Positions 22,082 to 48,586 of a DNA stretch of 64,000 nt are shown here, one piece after another. The translations under genes were made by a program, and so were the position numbers. This DNA comes from Amphiscolops sp. MND2022. Taxonomy: Eukaryota. The notes beneath the pieces were generated by a model, which worked only from the letters and a program-made list of their open reading frames with translations, was not told the origin of the DNA and ran no database searches. Location: NCBI GenBank assembly GCA_964187785.1, contig OZ076409.1, forward strand, positions 31,064,001 through 31,128,000. Reading direction: 5' to 3'. How positions within the stretch are numbered: the first letter of the stretch is position 1; each line of letters begins with the position of its first letter.

Positions 22082-23689
22082 TTTTGCTGCCTTACAGAAA
22101 GTAGCTTCGGCCCAAGGCGAACTAGACTTTGCAGAAGGTTTCAAAATTTGTTACTTCCAAAGTACATTACGGAAATTCAAATGAATATCTTGAAAATCAG
22201 TTTTTTTTAAAAGAAAAATTAGTGATAGCGTTAGCGGACTCATTTTGTTGTAGCGATAGCCATTAAATCGAGCCATTAGCCGATTAGCAGTCAGTAGTAG
22301 GAGAAATCCCGTTCCTGATATAAAAAAAATTTAAGTTCGTAAAATCATTAAAATTAGTCATTTTCACAAAATATCAATCAAATCATTAAAATTAAGCATC
22401 TTTTTCAAGGCAAATCATCAAAAATTAGCCAATTTTCACTACTAAAAAATAACATAAAAATCGATGAACAAAATTTGTCAAAAACTTTGTCACAAGGAAA
22501 AATTCACTAACCTCCATTACGCATTCGGTATGCGAAGCTGCTCTACGCAAAGCGCCTTCGGTATGCGAAGCCAGGTTTACTGTGAATGGTAAAGCTGTGA
22601 ATTTTGCTGTGAATGGTGTGTAGCAAAATTTTTTGGAACGAAAATAGCATTCAAGTGGAAACAAGTGTATGGTATTAATATAAAACTGGAATAACATCAA
22701 GTGGAACGTCACATGCCAACGGCGCTTCGCATGCCAAAGGCGCTTCGTATGTTGAATTTTTCGAGACAAATGAATTTTCCGAGACAAATGAAAAAACCCA
22801 TACAAAAATCTCAAACTTTAAAAAAACCGATACGAAAATCTCAAACTTTAAAAAACCGACACAAAAATCTCAAACTTTGAAAAACCCATACATATATCTC
22901 GGAAAAATGTTCAAATCCATATATGGAAAATTTTTATTCCTGATATTAATACATGGGAAAAAATAATTTAGACAAAATTCACAGAAACAAAAGTTGTAGC
23001 TAATCAAGTGTTACACATATTTCGTTACTGAGTGTTTTCTATAGAATCAACCCACTAATTACCAGGTGCCAAAACAGGTGGGAGAAAACGGGTTTTCCCC
23101 AATTTCTTGAGACTGACTCATTCCAGCGCAATGACACAGGAGATCAAAATTGTTGACAAAAACAAGATACACTGTTTTCAAAAAGAAAGGTTTCTGTATC
23201 TTGGACCCACTGATTACCACCTGCCCCAACAGGTGTGAAAAATTGGTTTTTCTCGAAATTGGTTGGAGTAAGACAGTTGTAAATTAGGTCCACTCTCATA
23301 TGTGATCTTTCTTATGGTATACTCAGCTTGTATGTGACCCGACAGGTGTTGAGATCAGGGTTGACCTTGAAACTTGCAAGATCAAAGGAACTCGCTCAAC
23401 CGTTAGTTTTAGCGTGATGACTCATGGGACCTAAAATGTAGGGCGTCAGAAAATAAGTCTCCCCACCAAATTTCATTTCAGTACTGAAAACCCACTGATT
23501 ACCACCTGCCCCAACAGGTGTGAAAAATGGGTTTTTCTCGAAAATGGTTGGAGTAAGACTAGTAACAGTTGTAAATTAGGTCCACTCTCATATATGATTT
23601 TTATTATGGTATACTCAGCTTGTATGTGACCCGAACAGGTGTTGATATCAGGGTTGACCTTGAAACTTGCAAGATCAAAGGAACTCGCT
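22082..23689. repeat. Tandem duplicate (offset 1621 bp) of host flank + TSD + Polinton left end
   Basis: 22082-23398 matches 23703-24988, including gcagtc|AGTAGTAGGAGAAATCCCG at 22293 and at 23914. Confidence 0.9.
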
Positions 23690-25481
23690 CTTCAAGGCGC
23701 AGTTTTGGCTGCCTTACAGAAAGTAGCTTCGGCCCAAGGCGAACTAGACTTTGCAGAAGGTTTCAAAATTTGTTACTTCCAAAGTACATTACGGAAATTC
23801 AAATGAATATCTTGAAAATCAGTTTTTTTAAAAGAAAAATTAGTGATAGCGTTAGCGGACTCATTTTGTTGTAGCGATAGCCATTAAATCGAGCCATTAG
23901 CCGATTAGCAGTCAGTAGTAGGAGAAATCCCGTTCCTGATATAAAAAAATTGAAGTGCGTAAAATCATTAAAATAAGTCATTTTCACAAAATATCAATCA
24001 AATCATTAAAATTAAGCATCTTTTTCAAGGCAAATCATCAAAAATTAGCCATTTTTCACTACTAAAAAATAACATAAAAATCGATGAACAAATATTATCA
24101 AAAACGTTGTCACAAGGAAAAATTCACTAACCTCCGTTACGCATTCGGTATGCGAAGCCAGGTTTACTGTGAATGGTAAAGCTGTGAATTTTGCTGTGAA
24201 TGGTTTGTAGCAAAATTTTTTGGAACGAAAATAGCATTCAAGTGGAAACAAGTGTATGGTATTAATATAAAACGAATAACATCAAGTGGAACGTCACATG
24301 CCAACGGCGCTTCGCATGCCAAAGGCGCTTCGTATGTTGAATTTTTCGAGACAAATGAATTTTCCGAGACAAATGAAAAAACCCATACAAAAGTCTCAAA
24401 CTTTAAAAAAACCGATACGAAAATCTCAAACTTTAAAAAACCGACACAAAAATCTCAAACTTTGAAAAACCCATACATATATCTCGGAAAAATGTTTAAA
24501 TCCATATATGGAAAATTTTTATTCCTGATATTAATACATGGGAAAAAATAATTTAGACAAAATTCACAGAAACAAAAGTTGTAGCTAATCAAGTGTTACA
24601 CATGTTTCGTTACTGAGTGTTTTCTATAGAATCAACCCACTAATTACCAGGTGCCAAAACAGGTGGGAGAAAACGGGTTTTCCCCAATTTCTTGAGACTG
24701 AGTCATTCCAGCGCAATGACTCAGGAGATCAAAATTGTTGACATTAACAAGATACACTTTTTTCAAAAAGAAAGGTTTCTGTATCTTGGACCCACTGATT
24801 ACCACCTGCCCCAACAGGTGTGAAAAATTGGTTTTTCTCGAAATTGGTTGGAGTAAGACTAGTAACAGTTGTAAATTAGGTCCACCCTCATATGTGATCT
24901 TTCTTATGGTATACTCAGCTTGTATGTGACCCGAACAGGTGTTGAGATCAGGGTTGACCTTGAAACTTGCAAGATCAAAGGAACTCGCTCAACCGTTAGG
25001 TTTAGCGTGATGACTCATGGGACCTAAAATGTAGGGCATCAGAAAAAAAACTACTCACCAACTTTCAACTCAGTACTAAAAACCCATTGATTACCACCTG
25101 CCCCAACAGGTGTGAAAAATGGGTTTTTCTCATTTTTCCCGAAACTGAGTCATCCTACAATACCGACTCGCGAGATCAAAGTTATAGACAAAAGTAAGAC
25201 AAGCTTTTTTCAAAAATGAAATTTTCTATAACCCAAACCCAGCAATCAGCACCTGTCAAAACAGGTGTAAAAATAGGTTTGCTCCTTTTTTTTGAGACTG
25301 GTTGGTCCTACGGTGAAAAGTCAGGAGTATAAAATTTTAGATATCCAAAATATGAACAACTTTTTCCCTGACAAATTTTCACTCTTGAATCCCAGGTTTA
25401 AAAAATAAAAAAATTTTCACCAATTTTTTGAAAAATTTTTGTTGAAACATTTTTGGTTAAACTATTTTTTCAATAAAAAAA

Positions 25482-28400
25482 ATTGAGAATTGTAGTATTT
25501 GTAATTCCGAATATAAAAAAGCTTTCAAATCCGATCATATAAAATCAGTAAAACATCAAGAAAAATTGGGGCAATATTATTGTAAAAAAATATCATTTAT
25601 ATATGCCCTTGTCAGATAAGTCTAGTCATCTAAATTCAGATGAACATAAAAACCATCATATTAAAATATGGTNNNNNNNNNNNNNNNNNNNNNNNNNNNN
25701 NNNNNNNNNNNNNNNNNNNNNNNNNNNNNNNNNNNNNNNNNNNNNNNNNNNNNNNNNNNNNNNNNNNNNNNNNNNNNNNNNNNNNNNNNNNNNNNNNNNN
25801 NNNNNNNNNNNNNNNNNNNNNNNNNNNNNNNNNNNNNNNNNNNNNNNNNNNNNNNNNNNNNNNNNNNNNNNNAATAACCAGCCGAATCAACAAATTAACT
25901 TTAGTCTAGATACACAGCAGAGCTGCCCTTCGGTACAAAGTGCCTCCGGTACACAGCAGAGTTCGGTGCAAAGTGTCTCCGGTACACAGCACCCTTCGGT
26001 ACAATTTGATAATAATGTAGAATTAATTGTGAATGAAAATACATACATTAAGCTGAAAGTAAATCCAACATGAAAATCTTGAACACGGCATAAATGAATT
26101 AATAAGTAAAAGGTATTTCCCCGATTTTAATATCGAATGAGTTATTTAGCTAAGTTTTCGAAAATCATTAACGGAGAAGAAAAAGTATTTAAAAGATGGG
26201 TTCAATCAGATTTGAATTATAGTTACTTGGATCAAGATGTTCACAACACATTAATGCAGAAATTAGATGATGAACAATTAGAAGGATCAGGTTTTGTGTT
26301 TCAAGAAATAGAAGAAGTTATATTAGAAATATATAAAGTTATTGATATTCAAGCATCTTCATAATTGAGTTACCACCAAATTATAAAAAGAATCTGTCAA
26401 TTATAAATATAAAAAATAAAGATCAATTTTTGTGTGGAGTTAATTAGCATATTTATATCCCGTTGAGAATAATAAAAATAAAACATCAAGTTATTCAATG
26501 CATTTTAATAAATTCAACCTAGAAGGTTTAGAATTCCAATGAAAGTCAAAGATATTCCAAGTTTGAAAATTTAAATATCGGACTGCGTATAAATGTATTT
26601 GAACTCACTGGAACTGTGTTACCACAGTAATACGAACTATGGTCAACCACAAATAGATTTATTATTATATGAAAATCACTATTGTTTAATAACGAAGTTG
26701 CATTGTCTAATAAAATAAAGATTCACATATGAAACATGTATGTAGAAGATGTCTAACAGCATTCAGTTCAGAACCGGTTCTACTTGATCATATGGAAAGA
26801 TGTATAAATCAACAACCAACTAATATCACATTCAGTTGGAAGGATGACTTAAAATCCGAAGACTACCACATGAAGATACCACTCCCAATTAGAGTATAAG
26901 CAGATTTCGAATGTATCAATCTACTCACAATCAACCCCAACGTATTATATAACGGAATTCCTATTGCAGTAGGATTTTATCGAATAACACCATCCGGAAA
27001 TAAGTATGACTCATACTTCGAGGAAGGTTGTACCGGAGGGCAGCAAAGCTGTGTAGAATGGTTTGTGGAAGAAGTGTTCATAATAGAAAAAAATGCTAGT
27101 AATTACTTTAAAACAATTTTATAATTTTAAATAACTCCTCAAGTAGAAGAATGATTTCAACAATCCACCATATGTTGGCTTTGCGAACAACCTTTTACTG
27201 AAAGTAAAGTAAGAGATCAAGATCATCTGACAGGAAAATACAGAGGAGCAGCTCATAATATATGTAACATAAATTGTAAACAAAAGCCATCAACGTTTGT
27301 TCCCATACTTTTCCATAACTTTTTTGGATATGCTTGTCATTTCATATTTGAAGAACTCTTAACACAAGCTTACAAAATGGGGTATGAACCAAAAATAATT
27401 CCAAAGTCAATAGAAAATTATGTATCAGTTCAAATAGGTTTTTAAGGTTTTTATCCATCAGATGAAGAAATTAACCGTACAAAAGAAATTATTTAAAAAT
27501 ATGATATAGAGAACGGACAAGAATTAACTTTGTTCTATTTGCAAATGGATGTTTTACCATTAGCAGATGTATTCGAAAACTTTGTGGAAAGTTTTTCACG
27601 AGAATGTAAAAATACTCCTTTGTATAGTTACTCTCTACCTGGTTATACATGGAAAGCAGGTTTAAAATTTACTAATATAAAGTTAGACTTTATAAAAGAT
27701 AAACACATGTTACTGTTTTTGGAAAATGATATCCGTGGAGGAATTTCAAGTGTAATGGGTGATAGGCATGTGCAAAGCACCTCCGATGTTGAATCTGATG
27801 AAAACAATAAACTTTCATATATTGATGCAAATAATCTATTTGGATGGGCTATGAGTCAACCTCATCCTACTGGCGAATTCGAAAAACTACCTTTTAATCC
27901 GTGTAATTACACAGATGATTACAATCTAGATCAATTAGTAGAAGATTTAATAAAAATACCTGATGACAATGAATATGGATTCTTCATAGAATGCGATTTA
28001 GAATATCCAGCTGAAATTAAAGAAAAAACAGAAAATTTTCCACTTTGTCCTTATCAAACAAAAGCAGATCCTAGGAGAAAGAGTAAACTTAGAGAATATA
28101 CCCCACACCAATATTGATCAAATAATGGAAAGACAATCGAAGTTACGTTTCAAAGGAATATCACAACATTATAATGATTTTAGTTTATATAAATATGATA
28201 AAGAAAAGACACTCTTTGATAAACCAATTTACTTGGGATTCTCTGTTTTAGAACTGAGTAATTTGATAATGTATGAGTTTCATTATCAAAAATTACAACC
28301 ATATTATAACCATACGCAAAGCGCCTCCGGTAAAATTAAACTGCATTATATGGATACAGACTCATTCATTCTAAGTATCAAAACCAAAGACCCTTTAAAA

Positions 28401-28992
28401 GACTTGGAATATTTTAAAAAATAATTTTGATTTCAGTGAATTAGATGAAAACCATCCATCATACGATATAACAAATAAGAAAGTTATTGGTAAAATGAAA
28501 AAAGAAACCTCACCAATTATTGAATTAGACAACTTCGTAGCATTGAGATCAAAATCATACGCCTTTTCATCTGCAAACATGCAAAGCACCTTCGGTAAAG
28601 AAAATTCTGAACAAGAAGGAATCCAAAAGTCTCCCAAGAAGGAAAGTTATATTAATTCATTATTTAATTCTCAAAGAACAACTGCAACTAATTATTCTAT
28701 CCGTTCAGAGGCTCACAATTTAACTGTTCAGAAGCAAGATAAGCTAGCTTTAAATCCATTTGATGATTAAAGAATGTATTTGAACCCAACCCAAAGTATC
28801 CCATGGAATAAACACATACGAAGTAGATTTTGTCCATGTATACTTTGTATAAAATTTATTAGATTGTATTATAATGAACTAACTGAAAGTAAAACAGAAA
28901 AAGAACTTTATTTAAATGTTTGGTTCGTAAAAGAAAATCAATACCATCAACAGCTTTTAAAACTGATAAGTGATCGAACACATCATTTATAA
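25482..28992 (+). pseudogene. Protein-primed family B DNA polymerase (pPolB) with N-terminal zinc fingers
   Basis: VRDQDHLTGKYRGAAHNICN, FHNFFGY, YIDANNLFGWAMSQ (motif A), YMDTDS (motif C) and ALRSKSY. The motif B region appears deleted near 28070. There are many stops and frameshifts, and it spans the N gap. Confidence 0.92.
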
Positions 28993-29294
28993 CTATATGC
29001 AAAGCGCCTCCGGTATACAGCTTCGCTGGCTTCGCATATATTATTATTATATTATAATAATTACAATAATATATAATAATATAATAAAATAAGTATAATA
29101 ATTATATATAACTTCTTCCATATCGTAATGAAAGTCTTGCTTCCCAAGTTTCTTTCTCAATCTTTCAGCTTTTAATAGAGATTTTGATTCTTGCAATTCT
29201 TTCAATTTTTCTACATCATCTCGACTATGAATTGAATACATAATTTATTCATTAATTATAATAATTTTGAATTTAAATTTAATCAATGAATAAT

Positions 29295-29680
29295 TAATGC
29301 ATTTTACCCAATTACAGGCCCTTCCCTTGATGAACAAATTTTATAATATCAGGAGCAGTTGCAGCAATAATTTTTGGATATTTACTTGCTGCTGCAGTTC
29401 CAATATTTGCTGCAAGCTCTAACGCTCTTCCAGGATTATTTGAAATTTTCTTTCCGACACTCTTTGCGGCTTTTCCTACACCTCGGAAGATGTCACCCAA
29501 TCCTTCTGCTTGTTTTGTTTGATCCGATACTATTAGTGACTTATTTCTTTCACAAGTTGAACAAGTACCTCTTAATAGTTTAACAGCTGCTCCACAATTT
29601 TTATTTTGAGTAATATCTCCACGAATATTTGTGGTAGCGGAATAATGTTTTCCACCAACACAATATGAATTATGTTTAAA
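29295..29680 (-). pseudogene. Small Polinton protein: Cys/His Zn-ribbon followed by amphipathic helix (copy 1)
   Basis: YCVGGKH...RGTCSTC.RNKS...GLGDIFRGVGKAAKSVGKKISNNPGRALE; further copies at ~36742-37125 and ~47350-47700. Confidence 0.6.
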
Positions 29681-29799
29681 TTTATTAATTTATTCATAAA
29701 TATAAAATCATTTTATGTTTATTTATATAAATATCAGAGATTCCTTATTATATTTTTACCATTTGTTTATAAATATTAATTTATTCATTGAAAATATAT

Positions 29800-31015
29800 T
29801 ATATTGAATCAAAATTCTTTTGTCCATCACTACTGGTACTTATCAGCTTGTGTGTTAGGACTATATAATCTGCAACATTAATGGCAGCACTAAAGTTAAA
29901 TTCTAATATAATAGGTGACTCGCAATATTATCATTTTGTTTGGATAAGTCAAATACATAGAAACTTTAATTTGTCCTGAATTTATGCAAATCAATAAATG
30001 GCCTCAATAGGTTGGTTTTTGTATGCAATCGATAGAAGTTTTCTGTTTCTTGATATGCTTCACGGTAGTTGTCTCTATCGTAATCACATCCAATTCCGTC
30101 AACAGGATATTTTTCTGATCCTATTTTACAAACAGCATTTGAAATAGGTAAACGATCAAATATTGCATTATCATGTGTTTGCGAATCAATTTTATTTCTA
30201 GTTTGAAATTCAACTTTTACGAAAGTTGGTGTTGATTCTCTACTATTTCCCACGTCAAAGGTCCAATTTTTATTACTGTTTACATCTTTTCTAAAAACAA
30301 TCCGTTCCATATAATACAATTCAGTTGGATCTTTATTCAGTAATTGATCCATCATAATTAGTTGATTTTCTAAGCTAAGTGTACAATGCGGAATATACCA
30401 ACCAATATCTTCTATAACAATTTTCGCAGCATCTACCCCAATATCCCTTATAATAGGATCGTTATTATTATTTCGTTTTAAAGTAAGAGAGAGTATAACC
30501 CAAACCATATGTTACTTTTTCTTGATCAGCAAACCCAAATAAATCAATTAGCTTGATGTTCACAAAGAATATTTCTTTCTCTGTCTTATTGGTAGTTAGT
30601 TCTAATCTGGTTGCTTGTGATTCTTCAAAATCATACATCAATTCGCTGGTTTGTTGTTGGGAAGTTAAAAGTTTATTCATTAAATTTACCGTGTGTAAAT
30701 TATCAACTTTTTCCAAATGTTTCCCCGAACTGGTTGTCAGCTCAGCTTCACTAAATAAAGCAGCAGGTCCAAAGTTGACCAAGTTTATTTTATCACCGTC
30801 GGCATATCTTGTATCATTGTTTTTAAGACCTTCAAAATCTAATGATTTGTATGAATTTTGTAAACAAATATTTGCGTCTTCTCTTGGTAAACTGATTGAA
30901 ATATTTGAGTTATTATTATTGATTGTCGCAAAACTATCAGGCGAATACTCAATTAAATCAATTTTATGAATAGGTTTATTGCGAGCATATTTATTTTTCA
31001 ATGAAAGTAATTCCT
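29800..31015 (-). pseudogene. Major capsid protein (double jelly-roll, hexon-like), copy 1
   Basis: Frames 30468..31001 and 29966..30508 join to ~400 aa with LIDLFGFADQEK, IGWYIPH, FQTR, FDRL, EKYP and FYVFDLSKQ, a pattern typical of Polinton/adintovirus MCP. Confidence 0.7.
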
Positions 31016-31159
31016 TTTATATAGAAAAATTATTCATTTTTTCTACAAACCTTTGGTTTGTAATATTAAAAAATCATGATTTAAAATGTATACTTATTTT
31101 ATTTTTACTAAATACCGAAGGCGCGAAGCGTAAGGTTAGCCTAAAAAGTAAACTCAGAA

Positions 31160-31661
31160 TTCAGTTAAGTTTTATTGTTTTTTTACACATCGTATGTTTG
31201 TTTTAGTTTGTTGTGTTCATTCAGATCTATTTTCTTATCTTCTAGACTTTTTGTGTGTAGCTTTTGGAAGTTGTTTAAAGTTCCACCAGCAAGAGTATAT
31301 TTCTCAAGATTGTGTTGTTCTTTTTCTTTTCAGATACTCACCAATAAACTTACTGAAAATGGATACTCCTGCACCTATACCACTCGCGATTGGTACCACA
31401 ATAAATCCAACTCCGGTAACACTTAACGTGGTAGCAGTTGAAGAAACACCCAATAATAAAACTCCATGAATAGATTGAATTGAACCGTTTATATTTTTAT
31501 TTGTTTTAGATTTCTTTTTTATTTGATTTTTTAGCTTCATGATTATAAAAATTTTGAATATCTTTCATATTTTGAATTGAATTATTAAAACTATTTATTT
31601 CTTTCAATCGCATATTGAGACTATCTGATTCGCGTAAACTAGGCCAAAGTTTTTCACTCAT
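31160..31661 (-). pseudogene. Polinton membrane protein (Gly-rich hydrophobic hairpin)
   Basis: GVLLLGVSSTATTLSVTGVGFIVVPIASGIGAGVSIFSK; further copies at ~38620-39119 and a truncated one at 42278-42473. Confidence 0.55.
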
Positions 31662-31883
31662 TTGTTCAGTTTAAAATTTACAAATTAGTGTTCAAAAAGA
31701 ATGAAATTGAGCTCAGTATTGGTTAGTTTCATTCTATTTTCAAGGTCAACAATAACTTTGTACTGGTCTTTCTTCAAACTAATTAACACGGTTTGTCTTG
31801 TTGAATAGTCTAAGTCTGATAAATATTACACACCATCTGATTTTTGTATTTCTTTTCCGTATTTTTCCAATAAGTATTCATTA

Positions 31884-32399
31884 CTAAATATAGATAAGAT
31901 TCAAAGGATTGGTTTTATTTTCAAATGGGTCAAACAATCCTTTATTATATTGTAATTGAATAGTATCTTTGACTGCTTCACTTTTACGTTTTTCTAATTC
32001 CAGAATAAGGTTCCGTTCGGATTGAATACGGAAAATGGTTTGTTGTTCTTCTACTAACTTGGCAGCATCCAAAATACTTTCTTTCTTCCTTTCGAATAAT
32101 TTATTTTTAATATCTTGTTCTAAATATTTTAAATTTGTTTTTATATCTTCTATACTTTTATTTATATCTAAGAATAACTTTGCATTAATTATTATATTTG
32201 TTTCACCGTTGGTAAATTGAATTTCTTCTACACGCAAAGCGCCTTCGGTACGCACTTCGGTACGTAATTCGGTATTTTGTTCTTTAAATTCATTAATATA
32301 TGTTTCTACTTTATCAGATACATCGTTAAGTTTTATGTTAATTAATTTGGTTTGTGATTCAAATTCTTTTTCAAGATTCCCACTTTTATCTTTTTGCAA
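31884..32399 (-). CDS. Polinton coiled-coil protein of unknown function
   Basis: 171-aa E/K-rich ORF; disrupted copies at ~39349-39860 and ~42700-43205. Confidence 0.5.
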   Translation of the reverse strand: MQKDKSGNLEKEFESQTKLINIKLNDVSDKVETYINEFKEQNTELRTEVRTEGALRVEEIQFTNGETNIIINAKLFLDINKSIEDIKTNLKYLEQDIKNKLFERKKESILDAAKLVEEQQTIFRIQSERNLILELEKRKSEAVKDTIQLQYNKGLFDPFENKTNPLNLIYI

Positions 32400-32503
32400 G
32401 CTATCGACACTATAACCAAATTTATGAATTGACAGTATTTATTTGAATGTAATTACTCAAATTGATTGAAAATATTCCTAATTTTTACGTTTTGTTGTTA
32501 AAT

Positions 32504-33319
32504 TTAAACTTGAATACACTTCTTAAAAGTTCTTGTTCATAATACTTTCCTTCTATTTGTTCGTTGATTTCATCTTTTAGAGTGTAAGTAACGGGATTCG
32601 TTTTGTTAACTTTATGTATTTTAAAAAGTTCTCAATTCCAATTTGTTGTATAACCTTTACTGTATAGTGTACGTTTATCAGGAACTCTTACAAAATCTCT
32701 CACTTGAAATTTGGGCAATTTATGCGAAGCCAGCTTTGCTGTATTATTATTATTATTATTGTTAGGTATTAGTTTATTATTAGTTGATATTTCAAATGGT
32801 GTCATTTTTGTTGTACCGTGGACACGAATATTATTTTTTTCCAGAGCAGTGATGATTCAGCCAACAACCTTCATTATACATTGGTTCTTTGATTAAGTCC
32901 AAAAGTGTTCTATTGAAACGTTCAACAAAAACAGCTGTTAAATCTGAATTGGTTGAATGACTTTGAATGTTTTGCTCTTTTAGGAAATTTAAAAATATTT
33001 TATTATAAAACTCTTCACCTCTATCAGACCAAATTTTATCAGGTTTTCATTTTGCTTTTTCAATAAGATTTTTAATGCAGTTGTTGTACTTTTTCCGGAC
33101 TTATCTTTAAGGGGAATCGCCCATGCATATTTAGTATGGTTTTCAATTATCGTGAAAATAAACTTGTAATTTGTGTTGTATTTGCATAAACTTGAGCGAT
33201 CAATTATATCGATACTACAACACTCATCTTTATAGTGAGTTTGTATTTGAATTCTTTGAAACCTTCTTAGTTACAGGAGAGAATATTTCTTTATCAATTT
33301 CTTTCTTCTTTTCATTCAT
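32504..33319 (-). pseudogene. Retroviral-type (rve) integrase, copy 1
   Basis: SIDIID..KYAWAIPLK..IWSDRGEEF..VERFNRTL..KFQV.DFVRV..YTTNW; frameshifted. Confidence 0.9.
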
Positions 33320-33546
33320 TGAATGAAATAAATGAAATAAATAAATGAATATGCAAAGCACCTTCGGTAGAGGAATCTTTGATAATGATTATTTAAATTG
33401 TTTAACTTCAAAGCAAAACTCTAAATGGTATTTGTATAATTATAATAGTAATTATATTTATAATATATTGGTGTTATATTCGCCCTAAATGGTATGAAGA
33501 AATTTATAAAAAACTGAAACAGTTTAAAGGGTTTAAGTATTCTCAT

Positions 33547-34395: not shown

Positions 34396-34576
34396 GTGTT
34401 TTAGTGTTTTTAGTCACTAAGCAATTCACTAAACCTCTTTTATTTAAGCACTAAGAGCAAACCCACACTTGGACTTGGTTGTTAACTTAGTGAAAATGTT
34501 TAGTGATCTTAGTGATTTTTTACTAATTAAATGAGGTGTTTAATTTGTGATCAAAATAGTGAAACTTCGCTGTGCA

Positions 34577-35548: not shown

Positions 35549-35602
35549 CATTACCGAAGGTGCTTTGCATATTTTGGTGTTAATTTGTTGTAATGCATCA
35601 TG

Positions 35603-36688: not shown

Positions 36689-37246
36689 AATTTATTTATT
36701 AATTATAATAATTTTGAATTTAAATTTAATCAATGAATTAATTAATGAATTTTACCCAAATACAGGCCCTTCCCTTGATGAACAAATTTTATAATATCAG
36801 GAGCAGTTGCAGCAATAAGTTTTGGATATTTACTTGCTGCTGCAGTTCCAATGTTTGCTGCAAGCTCTAACGCTCTTCCAGGATTATTTGAAATTTTCCT
36901 TCCGACACTATTTGCGGCTTTTCCTACACCTCGGAAGATGTCACCCAATCCTTCTGCTTGTTTTGTTTGATCCGATACTATTAGTGACTTATTTCTTTCA
37001 CAAGTTGAACAAGTACCTCTTATTAGTTTAACAGCTGCTCCAGTTTTTTTATTTTGAGTAACATCTCCACGAATATTTGTGGTAGCGGAATAATGTTTTC
37101 CACCAACACAATATGAATTATGTTTAAATTTATTAATTTATTTATATATATAAAATCATTTTATGTTTATTTATATAAATATCAGAGATTCCTTATTGTA
37201 TTTTTACCATTTGTTTATAAATATTAATTTATTCAATAAAAATATA

Positions 37247-38479
37247 TTATATTGAATCAAAAATCCTTTGTCCATCACTACTGGTACTTATCAGCTTGTG
37301 TGTTAGGACTAGGGCATAAGTTGTATAATCTGCAACATTAATGGCAGCACTAAAGGTAATTTCTAATATAATAGGTGACTCGCAGTATTATCATTTTGTT
37401 TGGATAAGTCAAATACATAGAAATTATAATTTGTCCTGAATTTATGCAAATCAATAAATGGCCTAAATAGGTTGGTTTTTGTATGCAATCGATAGAAGTT
37501 TTCTGTTTCTTGATATGCTTCACGGTAGTTGTCTCTATCGTAATCACATCCAATTCCGTCAACAGGATATTTTTCTGATCCTATTTTACAAACAGCATTT
37601 GAAATAGGTAAACGATCAAATATTGCATTATCATGTGTTTGCGAATCAATTTTATTTCTAGTTTGAAATTCAACTTTTACGAAAGTTGGTGTTGATTCTC
37701 CACTATTTCCCAAGTCAAAGGTCCAATTTTTATTACTGTTTACATCTTTTCTAAAAACAATCCGTTCCATATAATACAATTCAGTTGGATCTTTATTCAG
37801 TAATTGATCCATCATAATTAGTTGATTTTCTAAGCTAAGTGTACAATGTGGAATATACCAACCAATATCTTCTATAACAATTTTTGCAGCATCTACCCCA
37901 ATATCCCTTATAATAGGATCGTTATTATTTTTTCGTTTTAAAGTAAGAGAGAGTATAACCCAAACCATATGTTACCTTTTCTTGATCAGCAAACCCAAAT
38001 AAATCAATTAGCTTGATGTTCACAAAGAATGTTCCTTTCTCTGTCTTATTGGTAGTTAGTTCTAATCTTCTGGTTGCTTGTGATTCTTCAAAACCATACA
38101 TCAATTCGCTGGTTTGTTGTTGGGAAGTTAAAAGTTTATTCATTAAACTTACCGTGTGTAAATTATCAACTTTTTCCAAATGTTTCCCCGAACTGGTTGT
38201 CAGCTCAGCTTCACTAAATAAAGCAACAGGTCCAAAGTTGACCAAGTTTATTTTATCACCGTCGGCATATCTTGTATCATTGTTTTTAAGACCTTCAAAA
38301 TCTAATGATTTGTATGAATTTTGTAAACAAATAATTGCGTCTTCTCTTGGTAAACTGATTGAAATATTTGAGTTATTATTATTGATTGTCGCCAAACTAT
38401 TAGGCGAATACTTAATTAAATCAATTTTATGAATAGGTTTATTGCGAGCATATTTATTTTTCAATGAAAATAATTCCAT
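37247..38479 (-). pseudogene. Major capsid protein, copy 2
   Basis: Frames 37925..38479 and 37363..37968; near-identical to copy 1 with the same frameshift. Confidence 0.7.
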
Positions 38480-39973
38480 TTATATAAAAAAAATCATTTT
38501 TTCTACAACCCTTTGTTTGTAATATTAAAAAATCATGATTTAAAATGTATACTCATTTTATTTTTACTAAATACCGAAGGCGCGAAGCGTAAGGTTAGCC
38601 TAAAAAGTAAACTCAGAATTCAGTTAAGTTTTATTGTTTTTTTACACATCGTATGTTTGTTTTAGTTTGTTGTATTCATTCAGATCTATTTTATTATCTT
38701 CTAGACTTTTTGTGTGTAGCTTTTGAAAGTTGTTTGAAGTTCCACCAGCAAGAGTATATTTCTCAAGATTGTGTTGTTCTTTTTCTTTTCAGATACTCAC
38801 CAATAAATTTACTGAAAATGGATACTCCTGCACCTATACCACTCGCGATTGGTACCACAATAAATCCAACTCCGGTAACACTTAACGTGATAGCAGTTGA
38901 AGAAACACCCAATAATAAAACTCCATGAATAGATTGAATTGAAACGTTTATATTTTTATTTGTTTTAGATTTCTTTTTTATTTGATTTTTTAGCTTCATG
39001 ATTATAAAAATTTTGAATATCTTTCATATTTTGAAATGAATTAATAAAACTATTTATTTCTTTCAATCGCATACGAGACTATGTGATTCGCGTAAACTAG
39101 GCTACAATTTTTCACTCATTTATTCAGTTTAAAATTTACAAAATAGTTTTCAAAAAGAATGAAATTGAGCTCAGTATTGGTTAGTTTCATTCTATTTTTA
39201 AGGTCAACAATAACTTTGTCCTGGTCTTTCTTCAAACTATTTAACACTGTTTGTCTTGTTGAATAGTCTAGGTCTGATAAATAATACACACCATCTGATT
39301 TTTGTATTTCTTTTCCGTATTTTTCCAATAAGTATTCATTAATAAAATTTAGAAAAGATTCAAAGGATTGGTTTTATTTTCAAATGAGTCAAACAATTCT
39401 TTATTATATTGTAATTGAATAGTATCTTTGACTGCTTCACTTTTACGTTTTTCTAATTCCAGAATAAGGTTCCGTTCGGATTGAATACGGAAAATGGTTT
39501 GTTGTTCTTCTCCTAACTTGGCAGCATCCAAAATACTTTCTTTCTTCCTTTCGAATAATTTATTTTTAATATCTTGTTCTAAATATTTTTTAAATATATT
39601 TTTATATCTTCTATACTTTTATTTATATCTAAGAATAACTTTGCATTAATTATTATATTTGTTTCACCGTTGTTAAATTGAATTTCTTCTAGACGCAAAG
39701 CGCCTTCGGTACGCATTTCGGTACGTAATTCGGTATTTTGTTCTTTAAATTCATTAATATATGCTCCTACTTTATCAGATACATCGTTAAGTTTTATGTT
39801 AATTAATTTGGTTTGTGATTCAAATTCTTTCTCAAGATTCCCACTTTTATCTTTTTGCAAGCTATCGACACTATAACCAAATTTATGAATTGATGAATTG
39901 ACATTATTTATTTAAATATAATTACTCAAATTGATTGAAAATATTCATACTTTTTAACGTTTTGTTGTTAACT

Positions 39974-40783
39974 TTAAAGTTGAATACACTTCCTAAAAGT
40001 TCTTGTTCATAATACTTTCCTTCTATTTGTTCGTTGATTTCTTCTTTTAGAGTATAAGTAACGGGATTCGTTTTGTTAACTTTATGTATTTTAAAAAGTT
40101 CTCAATTCCAATTTGTTGTATAACTGTATAGTGTACGTTTATCAGGAACTCTTACAAAATCTCCCACTTGGACTTTGGGCAATTTATGCGAAGCCAGCTT
40201 CGCTGTATTATTATTATTGTTAGGTATTAGTTTATTATTAGTTGACATTTCAAATGGTGTCATTTTTGTTGTACCGTGGACACGAATAATATTTTTTTCC
40301 AGAGCAGTATTAAGATGATTCAGCCAACAACCCTCAATATACATTGGTTCTTTGATTAAGTCCAAAAGTGTTCTATTGAAACGTTCAACAAAAACAGCTG
40401 TTAAATCTGAATTGGTTGAATGAATTTGAATGTTTTGCTCTTTTAGGAAATTTAAAAATATTTTATTATAAAACTCTTCACCTCTATCAGACCAAATTTT
40501 ATCAGGTTTTCTTTTTGCTTTTTCAATAAGATTTTTTAATGCAGTTGTTGTACTTTTTCCGGACATATCTTTAAGGGGAATCGCCCATGCATATTTAGTA
40601 TGGTTTTCAATTATCGTGAAAATAAACTTGTAGTTTGTGTTGCATTTGCATAAACTTGAGCGATCAATTATATCGATACTACAACACTCATCTTTATAGT
40701 GAGTTTGTATTTGAATTCTTTGAAACCTTCTTAGTTACAGGAGAGAATATTTCTTTAGCAATTTCTTTCTTCTTTTCATTCAT
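39974..40783 (-). pseudogene. rve integrase, copy 2
   Basis: ORF 40102..40566 has IWSDRGEEF...VERFNRTL. Confidence 0.88.
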
Positions 40784-41009
40784 TGAATGAAATAAATGAA
40801 ATAAATAAATGAATATACAAAGCACCTTCGGTAAAGGAATCTTTGATAATGATTATTTTAATTGTTTAACTTCAAAGCAAAACTCTAAATGGTATTTGTA
40901 TAATTATAATAGTAATTATATTTTTAATATATTGGTGTTATATTCGCCCTAAATGGTATGAAGAAATTTATAAAAAACTGAAACAGTTTAAAGGGTTTAA
41001 GTATTCTCA

Positions 41010-41861
41010 TTTGACAAACCAAGAAGACGACCAAGAACTTACTCCAACAGTTACAAATACAAACTTTCACTTTTTAATATTTGGAAGTAGGGGTCGGGGA
41101 AGACTAGTTTCTTGAAACACTACCTAGATCAAACGAAATCTGATTCTTTAGTATTTGGACGAGACGAAAATGAGTTTCCTGATAATTATATACCTTTGTT
41201 GCAGTTAGAAAAAATAGAAATTGAAAAAAACGGTAATACTGGATGATGCAGGTGCATATAAAAACCTTAAAACAAAAGTAGGAGACTTTTTCCGGTTTGG
41301 TAGACATTATTACATCCAGGTGATATATTTAGCTCACTATGCAGAGAATGTTCTCCCAATAGTGAGAGAGAATTGTTTTAAGATCCTAATAACAATTATA
41401 AACGCAGATAACTTTTTGGAAACCATAATTAATGCATATGCAATCAAAGAACTCAAGTGGAAACAATACCGTGATCAGTTAGAATTTGGTATAATTGAAT
41501 TTGATACCCGCTCACAGAAGTACAAAATACTGAACCACAAGTACAATTTAATTTCCTATTCTAGTAAGCGCAACAAGTGGAGTCCGGAGGTTTTTTGTAC
41601 ACAGGTGAGGAATACAACAAAATGAAACTCTTTTTAGAGGAGATGTCTGACCAGACAATTGGAATAACACCTTATAATGTAGCTTATCATTTTGTAGCTT
41701 ATTGCAAACAAAATAAAGTAAAAGTGAATGAATGTAAAATAGACAATTATATCCGAAGGATGAAACAACCTCTGATTTCAGACAAAATGAAAGCTGAATT
41801 TAAAAATTTAATTTTGATCCAGGCGGTTAGGTATGGTAAATATTACCAAAATAACTCTTAG
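41010..41861 (+). pseudogene. Packaging ATPase 1, copy 2
   Basis: Same VILDD / GRHYY motifs as copy 1. Confidence 0.8.
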
Positions 41862-43311
41862 TGTTTTAGTGTTTTTAGTCACCAAGCAATTCACTAAACC
41901 TCTTTTATTTAAGCACTAAGAGCAAACCCACACTTGGACTAAAGTTAACTTAGTGAAAATGTTTAGTGATCTTAGTGATTTTTTACTAAATAAATGAAGT
42001 GTTTACTTTGTGATGAAAATAGTGAAACTTCGCTGTGCAATGATTGTCGTAATAAAAAGATGTAAGGACTGTAATATATTGACAACAGATTTATATAAAT
42101 ATAAAAATGGTAAAATGTATAGTACATGTATAGAATGTTTCAATAAAAAAGTAAAATGTGAATTTTGTAATGAGGAATTCAATAGAACATTTTTATCAAA
42201 ACATATCAAAAGATGCTTTATTGAGATGCTGCATTTAAATGATAATAAAATTATAAATAGTAATGATGAAAATATATCATGAATAGATTGAATTGAACCG
42301 TTTATATTTTTATTTGTTTTAGATTTCTTTTTTATTTGATTTTTTAGCTTCATGATTATAAAAATTTTGAATATCTTTCATATTTTGAATTGAATTATTA
42401 AAACTATTCATTTCTTTCAATCGCATACGAGACTATCTGATTCGCGTAAACTAGGCTACAATTTTTCACTCATTTATTCAGTTTAAACTTTACAAAATAG
42501 TTTTCAAAAAGAATGAAATTGAGCTCAGTATTGGTTAGTTTCATTCTATTTTTAAGGTGAACAATAACTTTGTACTGGTCTTTCTTCAAACTATTTAACA
42601 CGGTTTGTCTTGTTGAATAGTCTAAGTCTGATAAATAATACACACCATCTGATTTTTGTATTTCTTTTCCGTATTTTTCCAATAAGTATTCATTACTAAA
42701 ATTTAGATATGATTCAAAGGATTGGTTTTATTTTCAAATGAGTCCAACAATCCTTTATTATATTGTAATTGAATAGTATCTTTGACTGCTTCACTTTTAC
42801 GTTTTTCTAATTCCAGAATAAGGTTCCTTCGGATTGAATACGGAAAATGGTTTGTTGTTCTTCTATTAACTTGGCAGCATCCAAAATACTTTCTTTCTTC
42901 CTTTCGAATACTTTATTTTTAATATCTTGTTCTAAATATTTTAAATTTATTTTATATCTTCTATACTTTTATTTATATATGAATATCTTTGCATTAATTA
43001 TTATATTTGTTTCACCGTTGTTAAATTGAATTTCTTCTACACGCAAAGCGCCTTCGGTACGCACTTCGGTACGTAATTCGGTATTTTGTTCTTTAAATTC
43101 ATTAATATATGTTTCTACTATCAGATACATCGTTAAGTTTTATGTTAATTAATTTGGTTTGTGATTCAAATTCTTTTTGAAGATTCCCACTTTTATCTTT
43201 TTGCAAGCTATCGACACTATAACCAAATTTATGAAATGACATTATTTATTTAAATATAATTACTCAAATTGATTGAAAATATTCATACTTTTTAACGTTT
43301 TGTTGTTAAAT

Positions 43312-44128
43312 TTAAAGTTGAATACACTTGTTAAAAGTTCTTGTTCATAATACTTTCCTTCTATTTGTTCGTTGATTTCATCTTTTAGAGTATAAAGTAA
43401 CGGGATTCGTTTTGTTAACTTTATGCATTTTAAAAAGTTCTCAATTCCAATTTGTTGTATAACCTTTACTGTATAGTGTACGTTTATCAGGAACTCTTAC
43501 AAAATCTCCCACTTGGAATTTGGGCAATTTATGCGAAGCCAGCTTCGCTGTATTATTATTATTGTTAGGTATTAGTTTATTATTAGTTGACATTTCAAAT
43601 GGTGTCATTTTTGTTGTACCGTGGACACGAATATTATTTTTTTCCAGAGCAGTATTAAGATGATTCAGCCAACAACCCTCAATATACATTGGTTCTTTGA
43701 TTAAGTCCAAAAGTGTTCTATTGAAACGTTCAACGAAAATAGCTGTTAAATCTGAATTGGTTGAATGAATTCGAATGTTTTGCTCTCTTAGGAAATTTAA
43801 AAATATTTTATTATAAAACTCTTCACCTCTATCAGACCAAATTTTATCAGGATTTCTTTTTTGCTTTTTCAATAAGATTTTTTAATGCAGTTGTTGTACT
43901 TTTTCCGGACTTATTTTTAAGGGGAATCGCCCATGCATATTTAGTATGGTTTTCAATTATCGTGAAAATAAACTTGTAGTTTGTGTTGTATTTGCATAAA
44001 CTTGAGCGATCAATTATATCGATACTACACACTCATCTTTATTGTGAGTTTGTATTTGAATTCTTTGAAACCTTCTTAGTTACAGGAGAGAATATTTCTT
44101 TAGCAATTTCTTTCTTCTTTTCATTCAT
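43312..44128 (-). pseudogene. rve integrase, copy 3
   Basis: ORFs 43847..44032 and 43441..43872. Confidence 0.88.
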
Positions 44129-44355
44129 TGAATGAAATAAATGAAATAAATAAATGAATATGCAAAGCACCTCCGGTAAAGGAATCTTTGATAATGATTA
44201 TTTTAATTGTTTAACTTCAAAGCAAAACTCTAAATGGTATTTGTATAATTATAATAGTAATTATATTTATAATATATTGGTGTTATATTCGCCCTAAATG
44301 GTATGAAGAAATTTATAAAAAACTGAAACAGTTTAAAGGGTTTAAGTATTCTCAT

Positions 44356-45207
44356 TTGACAAACCAAGAAGACGACCAAGAACTTACTCCAACAGTTACA
44401 AATACAAACTTTCACTTTTTAATATTTGGAAGTAGTGGGTCGGGGAAGACTAGTTTCTTGAAACACTACCTAGATCAAACTAAATCTGATTCGTTAGTAT
44501 TTGGACGAGACGAAAATGATTTTCCTGATAATTATAAACCTTTGTTGCAGTTAGAAAAAATAGAAATTGAAAAAAACGGTAATACTGGATGATGCAGGTG
44601 CATATAAAAACCTTAAAACAAAAGTAGAAGACTTTTTCCGGTTTGGTAGACATTATTACATCCAGGTGATATATTTAGCTCACTATGCAGAGAATGTTCT
44701 CCCAATAGTGAGAGAGAATTGTTTTAAGATCCTTATAACAATTTTAAACGCAGATAACTTTTTGGAAACCATAATTAGTGCATATGCAATCAAAGAACTC
44801 AAGTGGAAACAATACCGTGATCAGTTAGAATTTGGTATAATTGAATTTGATACCCGCTCACAGAAGTACAAAATACTGAACCACAAGTACAATTTAATTT
44901 CCTATTCTAGTAAGCGCAACAAGTGGAGTCCGGAGGTTTTTTTTACACAGGTGAGGAATACAACAAAATGAAACTCTTTTGAGAGGAGATGTCTGACCAG
45001 ACAATTGAAATAACACCTTATAATGTAGCTTATCATTATGTAGCTTATTGCAAACAAAATAAGGTGAAAGTGAATGAATGTAAAATAGACAATTATATCC
45101 GAAGGATGAAACAACCTCTGATTTCAGACAAAATGAAAGCTGAATTTAAAAATTTAATTTTGATCCAGGCGGTTAGGTATGGTAAATATTACCAAAATAA
45201 CTTTTAG
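44356..45207 (+). pseudogene. Packaging ATPase 1, copy 3
   Basis: FGSSGSGKTS in 44356..44592; VILDD / GRH in 44567..44971. Confidence 0.8.
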
Positions 45208-45385
45208 TAATTTAGTGTTTTTAGTCACTAAGCAATTCACTAAACCTCTTTTATTTAAGCACTTAGAGCAAACCCACACTTGGACTAAAGTTAACTTAGT
45301 GAAAATGTTTAGTGAGCTTCGTGATTTTTTACTAAATAAATGAAGTGTTTAATTTGTGATGAAAATAGTGAAACTTCGCTGTGCA

Positions 45386-46357
45386 ATGATTGTATTAATA
45401 AAAAAAGATGTAAGGACTGTAATACATTGACAACAGATTTATATAAATATAAAAATGGTAAAATATATAGTACATGTATAGAATGTTTCAAAAAAAAGTA
45501 AAATGTGAATTTTGTAATGAGGAATTCAATAGAACATTTTTATCAAAACATATCAAAAGATGCCTTATTGAGATGCTGCATTTAAATGATAATAAAATTA
45601 TAAGTATTAATGATGAAAATATTATTAATAATAATAATGAAAATAATACCGCAGGCACCGAAGGCGTTTTGCCTGCTTCGAGTATTATGAATAATAATGA
45701 TGAAAATAATAATGATGAAATGAAAATACCGGAGGCCAGCAAAGCTGTAATAGAACGTTAATAGTTGGTCCATCATTTTGTGGGAAGACCCATTCGTTAT
45801 TAAACAAATTACAATTAACTCGATTGTGTGATAGTGAAAAGTAAATACGTATCTTTACGAGAAGTTCTGAACAATACAGCAAAGCTGGCTTCGCATATAC
45901 AAATACAAATACCGAATTATGTATTTCAGTGGAAGAAGATCTAGAAGATAGAACAATACAAGATTTTCAAAATTGTTGTGTTGTATTTGATGATATGTTG
46001 GATAGTAATCAAAAACTAATAGATCCATTTTTTACTAGAGGAAGACATAATGATTTGTATGTTTATTCTTTATCACAATCATATTTTGATTTACCTAGAA
46101 GAACAATTACAAACAATTCGAATTTTATTATTTTATTCCAACAAACCTTGAAAGATGTAGAGCATATTTATAGAGACAAAACTGGTTTTGATATGTCTTA
46201 TGATGAATTCCAAAGTTTATGCAGAGAAGCATGGAAAGAAAAATATAATTACTTAATAATAAATAGATTAGAAGATAAAAATGGCAAAAAATATATGATT
46301 TGTAATGAATCTAATCCGGAGTATAAAATCTATAATCCACAAACGGAAACTTTTTAA
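45386..46357 (+). pseudogene. Packaging ATPase 2, last copy
   Basis: RTLIVGPSFCGKTH; VVFDD; FTRGRH; LSQSYF. Confidence 0.85.
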
Positions 46358-47299
46358 ACATTACCGAAGGTGCTTTGCATATTTTGGTGTTGATTTGTTG
46401 TAATACATTCATATTCCAGGAGCTTATCTGTAATTGCTATGATTTGTTCACTAAGGAAAGAATTATCCTTACCTCTTACTTTTTCTAACACGATTAGTTT
46501 AAGTTGAACTACAAGCTCATCTGGATCAGATGGGAGGAAGACATACTGAATAAATCCACTTCCCAATTGGGATTGAAGTAAACGTTTAATGAAAATATAT
46601 CTGTTTGATTTTTTATCTCCATAATTTAAATCGTAATTCATAGCACGTGAAAAATTATTATTCATACCTATGTTTTTAATGTTATCGTGTTGTGTAATAG
46701 TAACGAAATTTGAAAGATCCGGATCATTCAAATTATACATGTTGTTATTGCTTAAGAAGGTTAGTATTGAACCTTTAATTAGTACTTAATGGGGATTATG
46801 GGGGTATATTGTGAATAAATTTGGATTACCTTCACCGAATTATGTAACAGGTTCTAAACTAAATTGACTTTTGTTTTTATCATTAAGTAAATTAGAAACT
46901 GTCTTGGTTATACTAGAATCAACTTGGTTGAAATTAACAAGACTCGTAAGAAGCTGATTAGTACGATTCATAATTTCATCATGATCTTGTATTCCCTATT
47001 TGATTGACTTTTGTAAATTTTTATTTAAATTATCGCTGGATTGTTGTATTGCTCTTGTTTGATTTTCAATAGTTTGGGTTTGTTGGCCAATGGCCTGTAA
47101 TTGTTTTTCAGATAATTGTTTCTGGTTTTAAGTAGCTTCAGCCTGTTTTACAGTAACAGGTTCGAAAACTTCTTCCATATCGTAATGAAAGTCTTGCTTC
47201 CCAAGCTTCTTTTTCAATCTTTCAGCTTTTAATAAAGATTTTGATTCTTGCAGTTTTTTCAATTTTTCTAAATCATCTCGACTATGAATTGAATACATA
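46354..47299 (-). pseudogene. LPSDPDEL-motif Polinton ORF, last copy
   Basis: ORF 46354..46740 plus upstream disrupted frames. Confidence 0.6.
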
Positions 47300-47719
47300 A
47301 TTTATTTTATAATTATAATAATTTTGAATTTAAATTTAATCAATGAATTAGTTAATGAATTTTACCCAAATACAGGCCCTTCCCTTGATAAACAAATTTT
47401 ATAATATCAGGAGCAGTTGCAGCAATAAGTTTTGGATATTTTTTGCTGCTGCAGTTCCAATATTTGCTGCAAGCTCTAACGCTCTTCCAGGATTATTTAA
47501 AATTTTCTTTCCGACACTCTTTGCGGCTTTTCCTACACCTCGGAAGAAGTCACCCAATCCTTCTGCTTGTATTGTTTGATCCGATACTAATAGTGACTTA
47601 ATTCTTTTACAAGTTGAACAAGTACCTCTTAATAGTTAAACAGCTGCTCCAGTGGTAGCGGAATAATGTTTTCCACCAACACAATATGAATTATGTTTGA
47701 ATTTATTAAAGCTCCTTAT

Positions 47720-48586
47720 TTAGATTAAATCTTGATAATGTGAATTGTAAATGTTAGTGTTTCGGAGTTGAAATCTACTGGGTTATGATTGTTATGCTCA
47801 CGCAAAAACTGGATCTTGTCTAACCTTGCTTTTAAATCTTTTTATACAAATTAGTATTAGGTTCTTTAATAATTTTATATCCTGGAGGTGCACTAAGATT
47901 GAAAGAAAATAAAATTTGTTCTCGTATACCAATAACAATTGAACCATCTACACAATCACATTTAAGATGAACTTTGTCTGTGGTTGTTATCATAACTGGT
48001 TTCTCTGACTTATGAGTTCCTTCTATATAGTATTCATTTGTGAATCCTAGAAGTTTATTTAATTCTGAATTAAAATGTATGTCATGAGAAGTTGTTAAAA
48101 CTGATTTCATTGATATTGTATCTGCTTCTATATTGAATTCAAATTCATACTCACTATATAATCACTAGAAAGTTTTTGTTTTATAATTTTGTTTATATCA
48201 ACTAATTCATATACACCAGGTAGTAGTTCTATTCTAATGTGATCGTGTACAAATTCAAATTCAGGAATATTTATGGAATTTAATTGATCTTTACGCGAAG
48301 CGCCTTTGATATCGAGATTAAGGAATTTTGTATCTTGTTGAACATCTTCAATTTCACTTGTTATACAGTTAAGATCATATCTGGTAAGTGACGTTCCAGA
48401 ATAACTATTGTTTATACTTTTATTAGTTTTTTCTATAAATTCATTATAGGAAGCCAGCGTTTTTGTCTGATTGAATTCAATTGAATAATCATAAACATTT
48501 TTCTGTAGTTCAGTGTCAACGTTTAATGATTTGAATTGTTGTCTTGTGAAATGGATTTCAAGTTTCGCTGGCTTCGCATAATTCAT
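47720..48586 (-). pseudogene. Minor capsid (penton-like single jelly-roll) protein
   Basis: LLPGVYELVDIN..LLGF..SEKPVMIT..VHLKCDCVDGS..ILFSF..PPGYKIIKEP..PVDFNSETLTF, a pattern typical of Polinton penton. Confidence 0.7.

Follow-up and report, generated by a model that had tools for sequence, protein, structure and literature searches.

Hairpin units in a Polinton of Amphiscolops sp.

The stretch of the Amphiscolops sp. MND2022 genome analysed here (contig OZ076409.1, positions 31,064,001 to 31,128,000; 64,000 nt, hereafter the window) carries a decayed Polinton/Maverick copy at 22293..49024, in which short GC-rich words recur inside unrelated genes. What are these words, and how do they multiply? 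The original prediction, made from the letters of the window, offered two answers: a self-propagating micro-repeat or a structural signal tied to strand-displacement replication. We found the words at the predicted places and on both strands, and the peptides attributed to them (QSTSDV, TQSASG, QSTFG, TEGALR, and TAKLASH) are present in the frames of the open reading frames (ORFs). The words are real, and their extents needed revision: the units are 18 or 21 nt long, bounded by A...T, and composed of two hairpins each. Of the listed positions, those at 34837 and 48564 hold degenerate or partial units that failed the patterns of the unit families. The hairpin units are real, similar to known hairpin repeats, unusually small, and unusually well resolved.

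Structure of the units

A motif-free search for pairs of adjacent triloop hairpins flanked by TA dinucleotides, controlled by two rounds of shuffling, gave 77 matches with cores mostly of 16 nt (51) and 19 nt (20), compared to 22 matches of mixed length in the shuffles. Family patterns recovered 315 units in 553 kb vs. none in one shuffle. Type A (18 nt) has the form A-YGC nnn GCR-CC nnn GG-T, and type B (21 nt, variants B1 and B2) the form A-CAGC nnn GCTG-short hairpin-T. Type C, found by a pattern-free census of insertions and deletions (indels), is 12 nt long (GC-GNA-GC-TNC-GC); each of its strands bears a GNA hairpin, and the central GC is common to both. B1 appears to contain an A-like hairpin short of one base and B2 a one-base spacer; but for these two changes they would be 22 and 20 nt long. 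One module pairing thus appears to have been trimmed by a base and another padded to reach 21 nt, which would point to selection on the repeat itself.

At 69 sites, the outer stem pair of the A unit was C-G (31), T-A (23), T-G (7), A-T (5), or broken (3). Its short hairpin has a GAA, GGA, or GTA loop, and hence a c-GNA-g triloop, in 103 of 120 contexts; for B1, c-GNA-g triloops were found in 57 of 78. The 5′ loops of type C are mostly GNA as well (GAA 196, GTA 101, GCA 41, and GGA 32). The commonest loop of the other A-unit hairpin is AAA. As far as the relevant part of the source describes them, very stable mini-hairpins resistant to 3′ exonuclease are formed with GNA loops only, and standard folding parameters miss their structures (PMC13037366). 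The GC-AAA-GC half is therefore an ordinary hairpin, and the predicted GNA loop holds for the short hairpins but not for this one. The loop of the long hairpin occurs in both orientations (e.g., AAA/TTT and GAA/TTC), and both module swaps and stem covariation were seen among units. No stop codon is present in any frame of 23 of the 25 commonest exact unit types, and none is created after TA.

Optional insertion and target rule

The 315 units fell into 114 clusters, 52 of which had a clean homologous empty site. The gain was exactly 18 or 21 nt at 47 of these 52 sites, a few of the 52 being tandem or nested, and the alignment with related Polintons proposed as a check thereby revealed presence/absence differences in multiples of three. 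Sites reading TA..TA when filled read TA when empty (20 sites); likewise, CA..TA corresponded to CA (8 sites), TA..TG to TG (4 sites), and CA..TG to CG (1 site). The other 19 rows showed point changes or other mismatches. The terminal A and T belong to the unit, which enters bluntly at a pyrimidine|purine (Y|R) step, because a duplication would give CA..CA and TG..TG. A TA target-site duplication as the scar of insertion was ruled out by the empty sites. The flanking micro-duplications ATGT (27768/27786) and TGT (27029/27050), which had been regarded as such scars, have the same explanation, their empty sites being plain T|G.

The Y|R step was present at 95 of 109 independent solitary sites vs. 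23% in the background, with A two bases upstream at 70. Outside protein matches it was found at 37 of 51 sites, so codon structure does not explain the rule. C units also enter bluntly, with Y|R at 38 of 58 sites. The units differ from miniature transposable elements with inverted repeats (MITEs) in the lack of target-site duplications and of terminal inverted repeats (TIRs) matching a partner transposase: A and B units have no more than one A/T end pair in common. No likeness was found between the ends of A/B units and those of the Polinton. The absence of the units from outgroup proteins polarises the inserts as gains.

Distribution in the genome

With the family patterns, 27 A/B units were found in the window Polinton, duplicated copies included, and none in 37 kb of flanks. 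The predicted enrichment inside relative to outside the element was also apparent from c-GNA-g 7-mers, which numbered 57 in the Polinton vs. 3.7 in shuffles and 23 in the window flanks vs. 22.6 in shuffles. Neither of the observations that would speak against mobility, fixed ancestral coding sequence in homologs or equal frequency in non-Polinton DNA, was made.

In the whole genome (1.07 Gb, to which all genome-wide pattern counts refer), exact matches to the 17-mer and 21-mer patterns numbered 727 and 300, respectively; the reversed-pattern controls gave none. All 20 sampled regions around the 17-mer pattern held Polinton DNA, as did all 30 sampled loci of the 21-mer pattern (six of them the window itself, and several overlapping). 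When 40 isolated matches were chosen to seek exceptions, 38 lay at most 1.5 kb from a Polinton protein match and the remaining two within ~600 nt of a Polinton end. Every sampled exact match falls in one Polinton clade. Type C prevails in a sister subfamily (266 matches vs. 5.8 in shuffles), and few units cross between subfamilies (the sister group has 14 A/B units in 180 kb). A second Polinton family of the same genome had no units in 65 kb and no excess of GNA words (21 vs. 40 in shuffled sequence). One family-pattern match outside Polinton DNA, at locus L096, was poor, with one mismatch, and was counted as a false positive.

Other hosts were judged solely from pPolB protein alignments, in which relatives at ~52% identity showed no hairpin-unit inserts. 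No pPolB relatives were found in IMG/VR and JGI metagenomes, and a pattern scan of IMG/VR gave two matches only, both by chance, in a phage structural gene. Besides the clade with units, the genome harbours further Polinton families, at least two in number, whose capsid fragments are ~88% and 38–41% identical to the L083 query (loci L083 and L173–L192).

Reading frame and selection on protein

In the pattern-free indel census between copies, lengths divisible by three made up 122 of 145 GC-rich indels vs. 146 of 303 AT-rich ones (Fisher p 1e-13). A/B inserts lie between codons at 50 of 65 coding sites, 45% being expected from TA steps (p 2e-7); pPolB alone contributed 44 of the coding sites. 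C inserts favour codon phase 1 (16/27). Units of 12, 18, and 21 nt add 4–7 amino acids to viral proteins without a frameshift, the A/B inserts giving peptides such as TQSAFG, TEGALR, TAKLASH, and TGGQQSC. In close database relatives, open pPolB frames contain unit peptides too, at positions that vary. The lengths and the placement between codons point to selection on translated proteins. Since codon-phase bias and peptides in open frames of relatives accompany the lengths in multiples of three, the inserts probably arose while the elements were expressed and replicating. The units are a steady source of loops of 4–7 residues in viral proteins. Being polymorphic for presence and absence, of lengths divisible by three, and confined to Polinton DNA, they behave as the self-propagating micro-repeat that had been proposed.

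Nesting and recombination

Units were found in tandem runs and nested inside one another. Of the three Y|R steps that could be tested, a single one, immediately following GC-nnn-GC, hosts all nine printed cases of an A unit within an A unit; two of these rows represent one pPolB site, one host unit is degenerate, and nestings of C units are confounded by tandem repeats. A polymerase would run into the GNA hairpin of the template about one base beyond this step. The inner unit came from elsewhere, because inner and outer units usually differ.

In two pairs of copies, with identities of 99.55% and 99.65% over ~7.6 kb per pair, at least two 12-nt indels separate the members. Fresh jumps between these ~99.6%-identical copies were considered as proof of activity and rejected: the indel alleles aligned between near-identical copies are common to other copies, and the flanks are altered too. 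In five close pairs, 27 of 205 substitutions lay within 40 nt of unit indels (~5 expected), and in seven pairs a hairpin word was present in 14 of 37 divergence patches (3.2 expected). These data demonstrate that filled and empty alleles recombine in short patches; they do not demonstrate jumping at the present day. For type A, variants were shared within a copy more often than expected (13 of 233 pairs vs. 4.9, p 0.006).

Possible mechanisms of spread

We give about even chances to the explanation that the units are selfish micro-elements spread via template switching by the protein-primed DNA polymerase of the Polinton, followed by short-patch recombination. Protein-primed polymerases replicate by strand displacement, which in Polintons would expose single strands where GNA mini-hairpins could fold; the tie to this mode of replication made in the original prediction is plausible. 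At such a hairpin the polymerase would pause, and its growing end could jump to a folded unit, the ends of which lie side by side, copy it, and go back to the point of departure. Filled alleles would then pass between copies in short recombination patches, and selection on the translated proteins would retain stop-free unit lineages with lengths in multiples of three, mostly as inserts in tolerated frames or loops. Template switching is favoured because it needs no extra gene and explains both the confinement to one clade and the missing duplication. It is also favoured because nesting at the predicted pause, loop inversions, and module swaps fit it; loop inversion is given as a signature of template switching in the portion of the literature at hand (PMC8794818).

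Several points weigh against template switching. The steps of the mechanism are all inferred. C units and C|G targets often show no microhomology that could guide the switch, and base pairing alone leaves the preference for C over A/G left of the site unexplained. The Y|R rule is weaker for C units in genes, where those at codon phase 1 have Y|R at only 5 of 16 sites. By nearest-neighbour folding the units are no stabler than shuffles (z −0.1 to −1.2) and mostly form one hairpin. Near-identical copies differ by what look like recombined old alleles, not fresh jumps; only 14 of the 37 divergence patches have a hairpin word, so patches form without hairpins too; and within-copy variant sharing showed no excess for B1 or C. 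In addition, the family patterns were derived from the data themselves, and the site counts come from clustering of flanks, not from a tree.

A doubtful but serious alternative is that an enzyme encoded by the element moves the folded single-stranded unit by cutting and joining at Y|R bonds. Two candidates may be named, the rve integrase and an Endonuclease VII (Endo VII)-like domain in pPolB, where a motif of this kind (CxxC...DHD/Q.H...RGxxH..C N) lies at 27155..27270 on the plus strand. Judged by its family, the Endo VII-like domain would be a cutter of branched DNA. A single active site should act on one kind of step, and Y|R is indeed what is seen at both junctions (Y|A or Y|G on the left, T|R or C|R on the right), at the target, and at the junction that a circle would have; the ends are exact without duplication. 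Of the close relatives, 62 of 70 retain the motif; however, so do 47 of 50 distant ones (~52% identical), whose pPolB has no such inserts. Its match to Pfam PF02945 (E 0.002) is below the cut-off, and a PDB sequence search with the Endo VII-like stretch gave no match. The integrase, for its part, yields a 6-bp duplication for the whole element. Neither a HUH transposase nor a tyrosine recombinase was found among 13 representative Polinton ORFs; for HUH, six of these ORFs had no Pfam match, and the search covered no other part of the genome. For the yeast GC clusters, nucleases have been suggested in the part of that account consulted (PMC4478555), and inserted homing-endonuclease domains have been reported in Polinton pPolBs, as far as the partial text indicates (bioRxiv 10.1101/2024.03.18.585575).

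We regard as unlikely, though worth stating, the stronger idea that the units form a minimal class of mobile DNA, 12–21 bases with two mini-hairpins, which parasitises protein-primed DNA viruses. A viral replication enzyme whose cutting and joining are restricted to Y|R, possibly the Endo VII-like domain in pPolB, would move the folded single strand, and the unit's length and sequence would be fitted to the genetic code. If this were true, it would also account for the orphan GNA-hairpin repeats found in mitochondria.

Capture of oligonucleotides is improbable. Exonuclease-resistant mini-hairpins would outlast the turnover of displaced strands and be end-joined into breaks; GNA mini-hairpins do withstand 3′ exonuclease according to the excerpted report (PMC13037366), and many C insertions are blunt without homology. 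The ends are nevertheless too exact (47/52) for ordinary end joining, and the units are missing from host DNA and from the other Polinton family in the same nuclei.

It is very improbable that the hairpins are a useful viral cis signal, for priming, packaging, transcription, or exclusion of single-stranded DNA-binding protein (SSB), spread by selection. GNA mini-hairpins are present at the priming sites of phage G4 and ssiA and in the N4 promoter and bind SSB poorly, by the available description (PMC13037366), and some units lie in many terminal regions. Against this, unit positions vary between copies, and the two subfamilies use different units. Certain termini are free of hairpin words over 900 nt (L008, L009), and no unit is present in certain 10-kb stretches that contain pPolB and capsid genes (L097, L099). 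The units are therefore dispensable and not a required signal; an obligatory cis signal is largely refuted, and the structural-signal alternative of the original prediction is not supported. A conserved end signal was rejected as well.

It is hardly credible that host repair or gene conversion added the inserts to copies already integrated and decaying. The decay of the window copy, the differences at some units between its duplicated blocks, and the existence of short conversion-like patches speak for this reading, but the biases in length and codon phase, the open pPolB frames with unit peptides in database relatives, and the unit-free neighbouring host DNA require selection on translated viral proteins.

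Relation to known hairpin repeats

The predicted analogy with the GC clusters of yeast mitochondrial DNA is sound: these too, in the sections of the work covered (Wu and Hao 2015, PMC4478555), are optional GC-rich palindromes in AT-rich DNA, with constrained stems, variable loops, modules that merge and shuffle, and changes of adjacent bases; they are described as having no enzyme of their own and an unsettled mechanism. By the same partial account, GC42 is 42 nt long, is flanked by AG or ACT direct repeats, and resides in intergenic DNA and introns (PMC4478555). The Polinton units are 12–21 nt long, enter at Y|R without duplication, have GNA triloops, and lie largely in frame within genes of a nuclear-integrated element; of the properties of GC clusters they share the optional palindromes and lack the AG/ACT direct repeats and the mitochondrial location. 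They work like GC clusters but are not GC clusters.

Double-hairpin elements (DHEs) of chytrid and fission-yeast mitochondria likewise consist of two adjacent GC-rich hairpins, are gene-less, and are potentially mobile, to judge from the portions available (PMC10085805, PMC7218506). Their reported locations are the intergenic DNA and the rRNA genes of mitochondria, and windows of 35 bp were used to detect them (PMC10085805, in part). The units of the Polinton, compared with DHEs by description only, have stems of 2–4 bp and 3-nt loops and are tuned to codon length; two adjacent hairpins are present in the unit sequence, and folding software gives one hairpin in most units. Rickettsia palindromic elements resemble the units as in-frame palindromic inserts that add peptides to unrelated genes, but are ~150 bp long, bacterial, and classed with MITEs in the accessible text (PMC10969869). 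The Polinton units are about 10 times smaller and without TIRs and target duplications. Template-switch mutations at hairpins likewise invert loops, change stems with instant compensation, and place insertions in stems; these are local events in the extract consulted (PMC8794818), whereas the Polinton units occupy distant non-homologous sites.

How gene-less hairpin repeats such as GC clusters, DHEs, and Rickettsia palindromic elements multiply is described as unsettled in the parts of these sources that we used (PMC4478555, PMC10085805, PMC10969869). Here, the search for a mover narrows to an element of ~15 kb that has about a dozen genes, and from hundreds of copies in one genome the ends of the units, their target rule, and the frame bias can be given exactly. 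With so few candidates and so many copies, one polymerase and a few oligonucleotides would be enough to test the mechanism. To our knowledge, the units rank among the smallest self-spreading sequences. Literature searches, with most subscription journals outside their coverage, found no published description of such units in Polintons.

Units of the window copy

Close to the left end, an 18-nt type A unit (22545..22562, plus strand) lies in a cluster of hairpin modules; no homologous empty site was found for it. In the 5′ part of pPolB, tandem B2 and degenerate A units occupy 25914..26001 on the plus strand (QQSCPSVQSASGTQQ...). Further into the gene, a 21-nt B2 unit (27032..27052, minus strand) at a T|G step adds TGGQQSC; the homologous site is empty at three other loci and holds 21 nt at six and 42 nt at one. 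The 18-nt A unit at 27770..27787 (plus strand), with its first base altered, also entered a T|G step and adds VQSTSD; its homologs comprise 39 other empty loci, 10 with 18 nt, and one nested insert of 36 nt. The plus-strand A unit at 28314..28331, at a T|A step, adds TQSASG to a loop that tolerates insertion, with additional alleles of 12, 15, 36, 54, and 72 nt and 26 other loci empty.

In a hypervariable loop of pPolB, an A unit at 28579..28596 (plus strand) adds MQSTFG. The homologous loop of other copies carries A units of opposite orientation (L026 and L035 vs. L041), apparently at the same T|A step; the units either inserted independently or were inverted in place. At its 3′ end, pPolB contains an A and a B1 unit on the plus strand (28997..29037; A at 28997-29014 and B1 at 29017-29037), with one empty T|A homolog for the A unit.

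Outside pPolB, an A unit on the minus strand (31114..31131, duplicate 38573-38590) occupies a T|A step that is empty at eight other loci and holds 18 nt at three. The A unit at 32232..32249 (plus strand; duplicates 39693 and 43041) reads TEGALR in a minus-strand ORF and is followed by two 12-nt deletion derivatives. In the integrase gene, a B1 unit (32722..32742, minus strand; duplicates 40186 and 43531) adds TAKLASH. Upstream of the first ATPase gene lies an A unit (33351..33368, plus strand; duplicates 40815 and 44160) for which no empty homolog was found. The second ATPase gene contains a B2 unit (34913..34933, minus strand; duplicate 45728), a degenerate unit at 34838, and a B1 unit (35069..35089, plus strand; duplicate 45876) that reads YSKAGFAY. 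An A unit marks the junction of two convergent genes (35553..35570, minus strand; duplicate 46363), and a partial B1 unit (48564..48580, plus strand), which failed the family pattern, lies close to the start of a minus-strand ORF.

The Polinton copy and its surroundings

The element starts with AGTAGT at 22293 and ends with ACTACT at 49024, with the 6-bp target duplication GCAGTC on either side; the arms of its TIRs are 87–89% identical. It thus has the ends typical of Polintons/Mavericks (AG...CT, TIRs, and a 6-bp duplication) as well as their genes: pPolB, rve integrase, double-jelly-roll (DJR) capsid protein, and packaging ATPase. Pfam matches were obtained for the integrase, the DJR-like capsid, and the A32-like ATPase (Pox_A32), and pPolB was recognised via relatives annotated as PF03175. 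The copy contains stops and frameshifts, and its capsid, integrase, ATPase, and pPolB genes are remnants. Two adjacent A32-like ATPase genes are present in the clade (L058:229-2979; window 33406-35379), the second with a cysteine-rich N-terminal domain. One pPolB relative, P0096 (1537 aa), bears Hint/intein Pfam domains.

The left end of the Polinton is duplicated at 23914, and internal blocks are duplicated at 94–97% identity. The tandem duplicate at 22079-25131 comprises the left end with ~200 nt of host flank, and internal blocks of 3–7 kb are present two to three times within 29110-47709. The duplicated blocks are either real rearrangements or an assembly of two haplotypes. A 395-nt palindrome, 98% perfect (35603-35996), stands in place of a gene end kept uninverted at 46406-46602 and looks like a fold-back template switch within the window copy.

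About 300 nt beyond the right end of the Polinton, a short GCTCCGCTTCGCTTCGC run (49318-49334) resembles a C module and matched the loose pattern but not the strict one. Further downstream, a long terminal repeat (LTR) retrotransposon ORF of 1877 codons (52748-58381) encodes protease, reverse transcriptase, RNase H, and integrase in the Ty3/Gypsy order. A tandem array of an 84-nt repeat with at least 16 copies (60226-62150) overlaps a frame of 219 codons.

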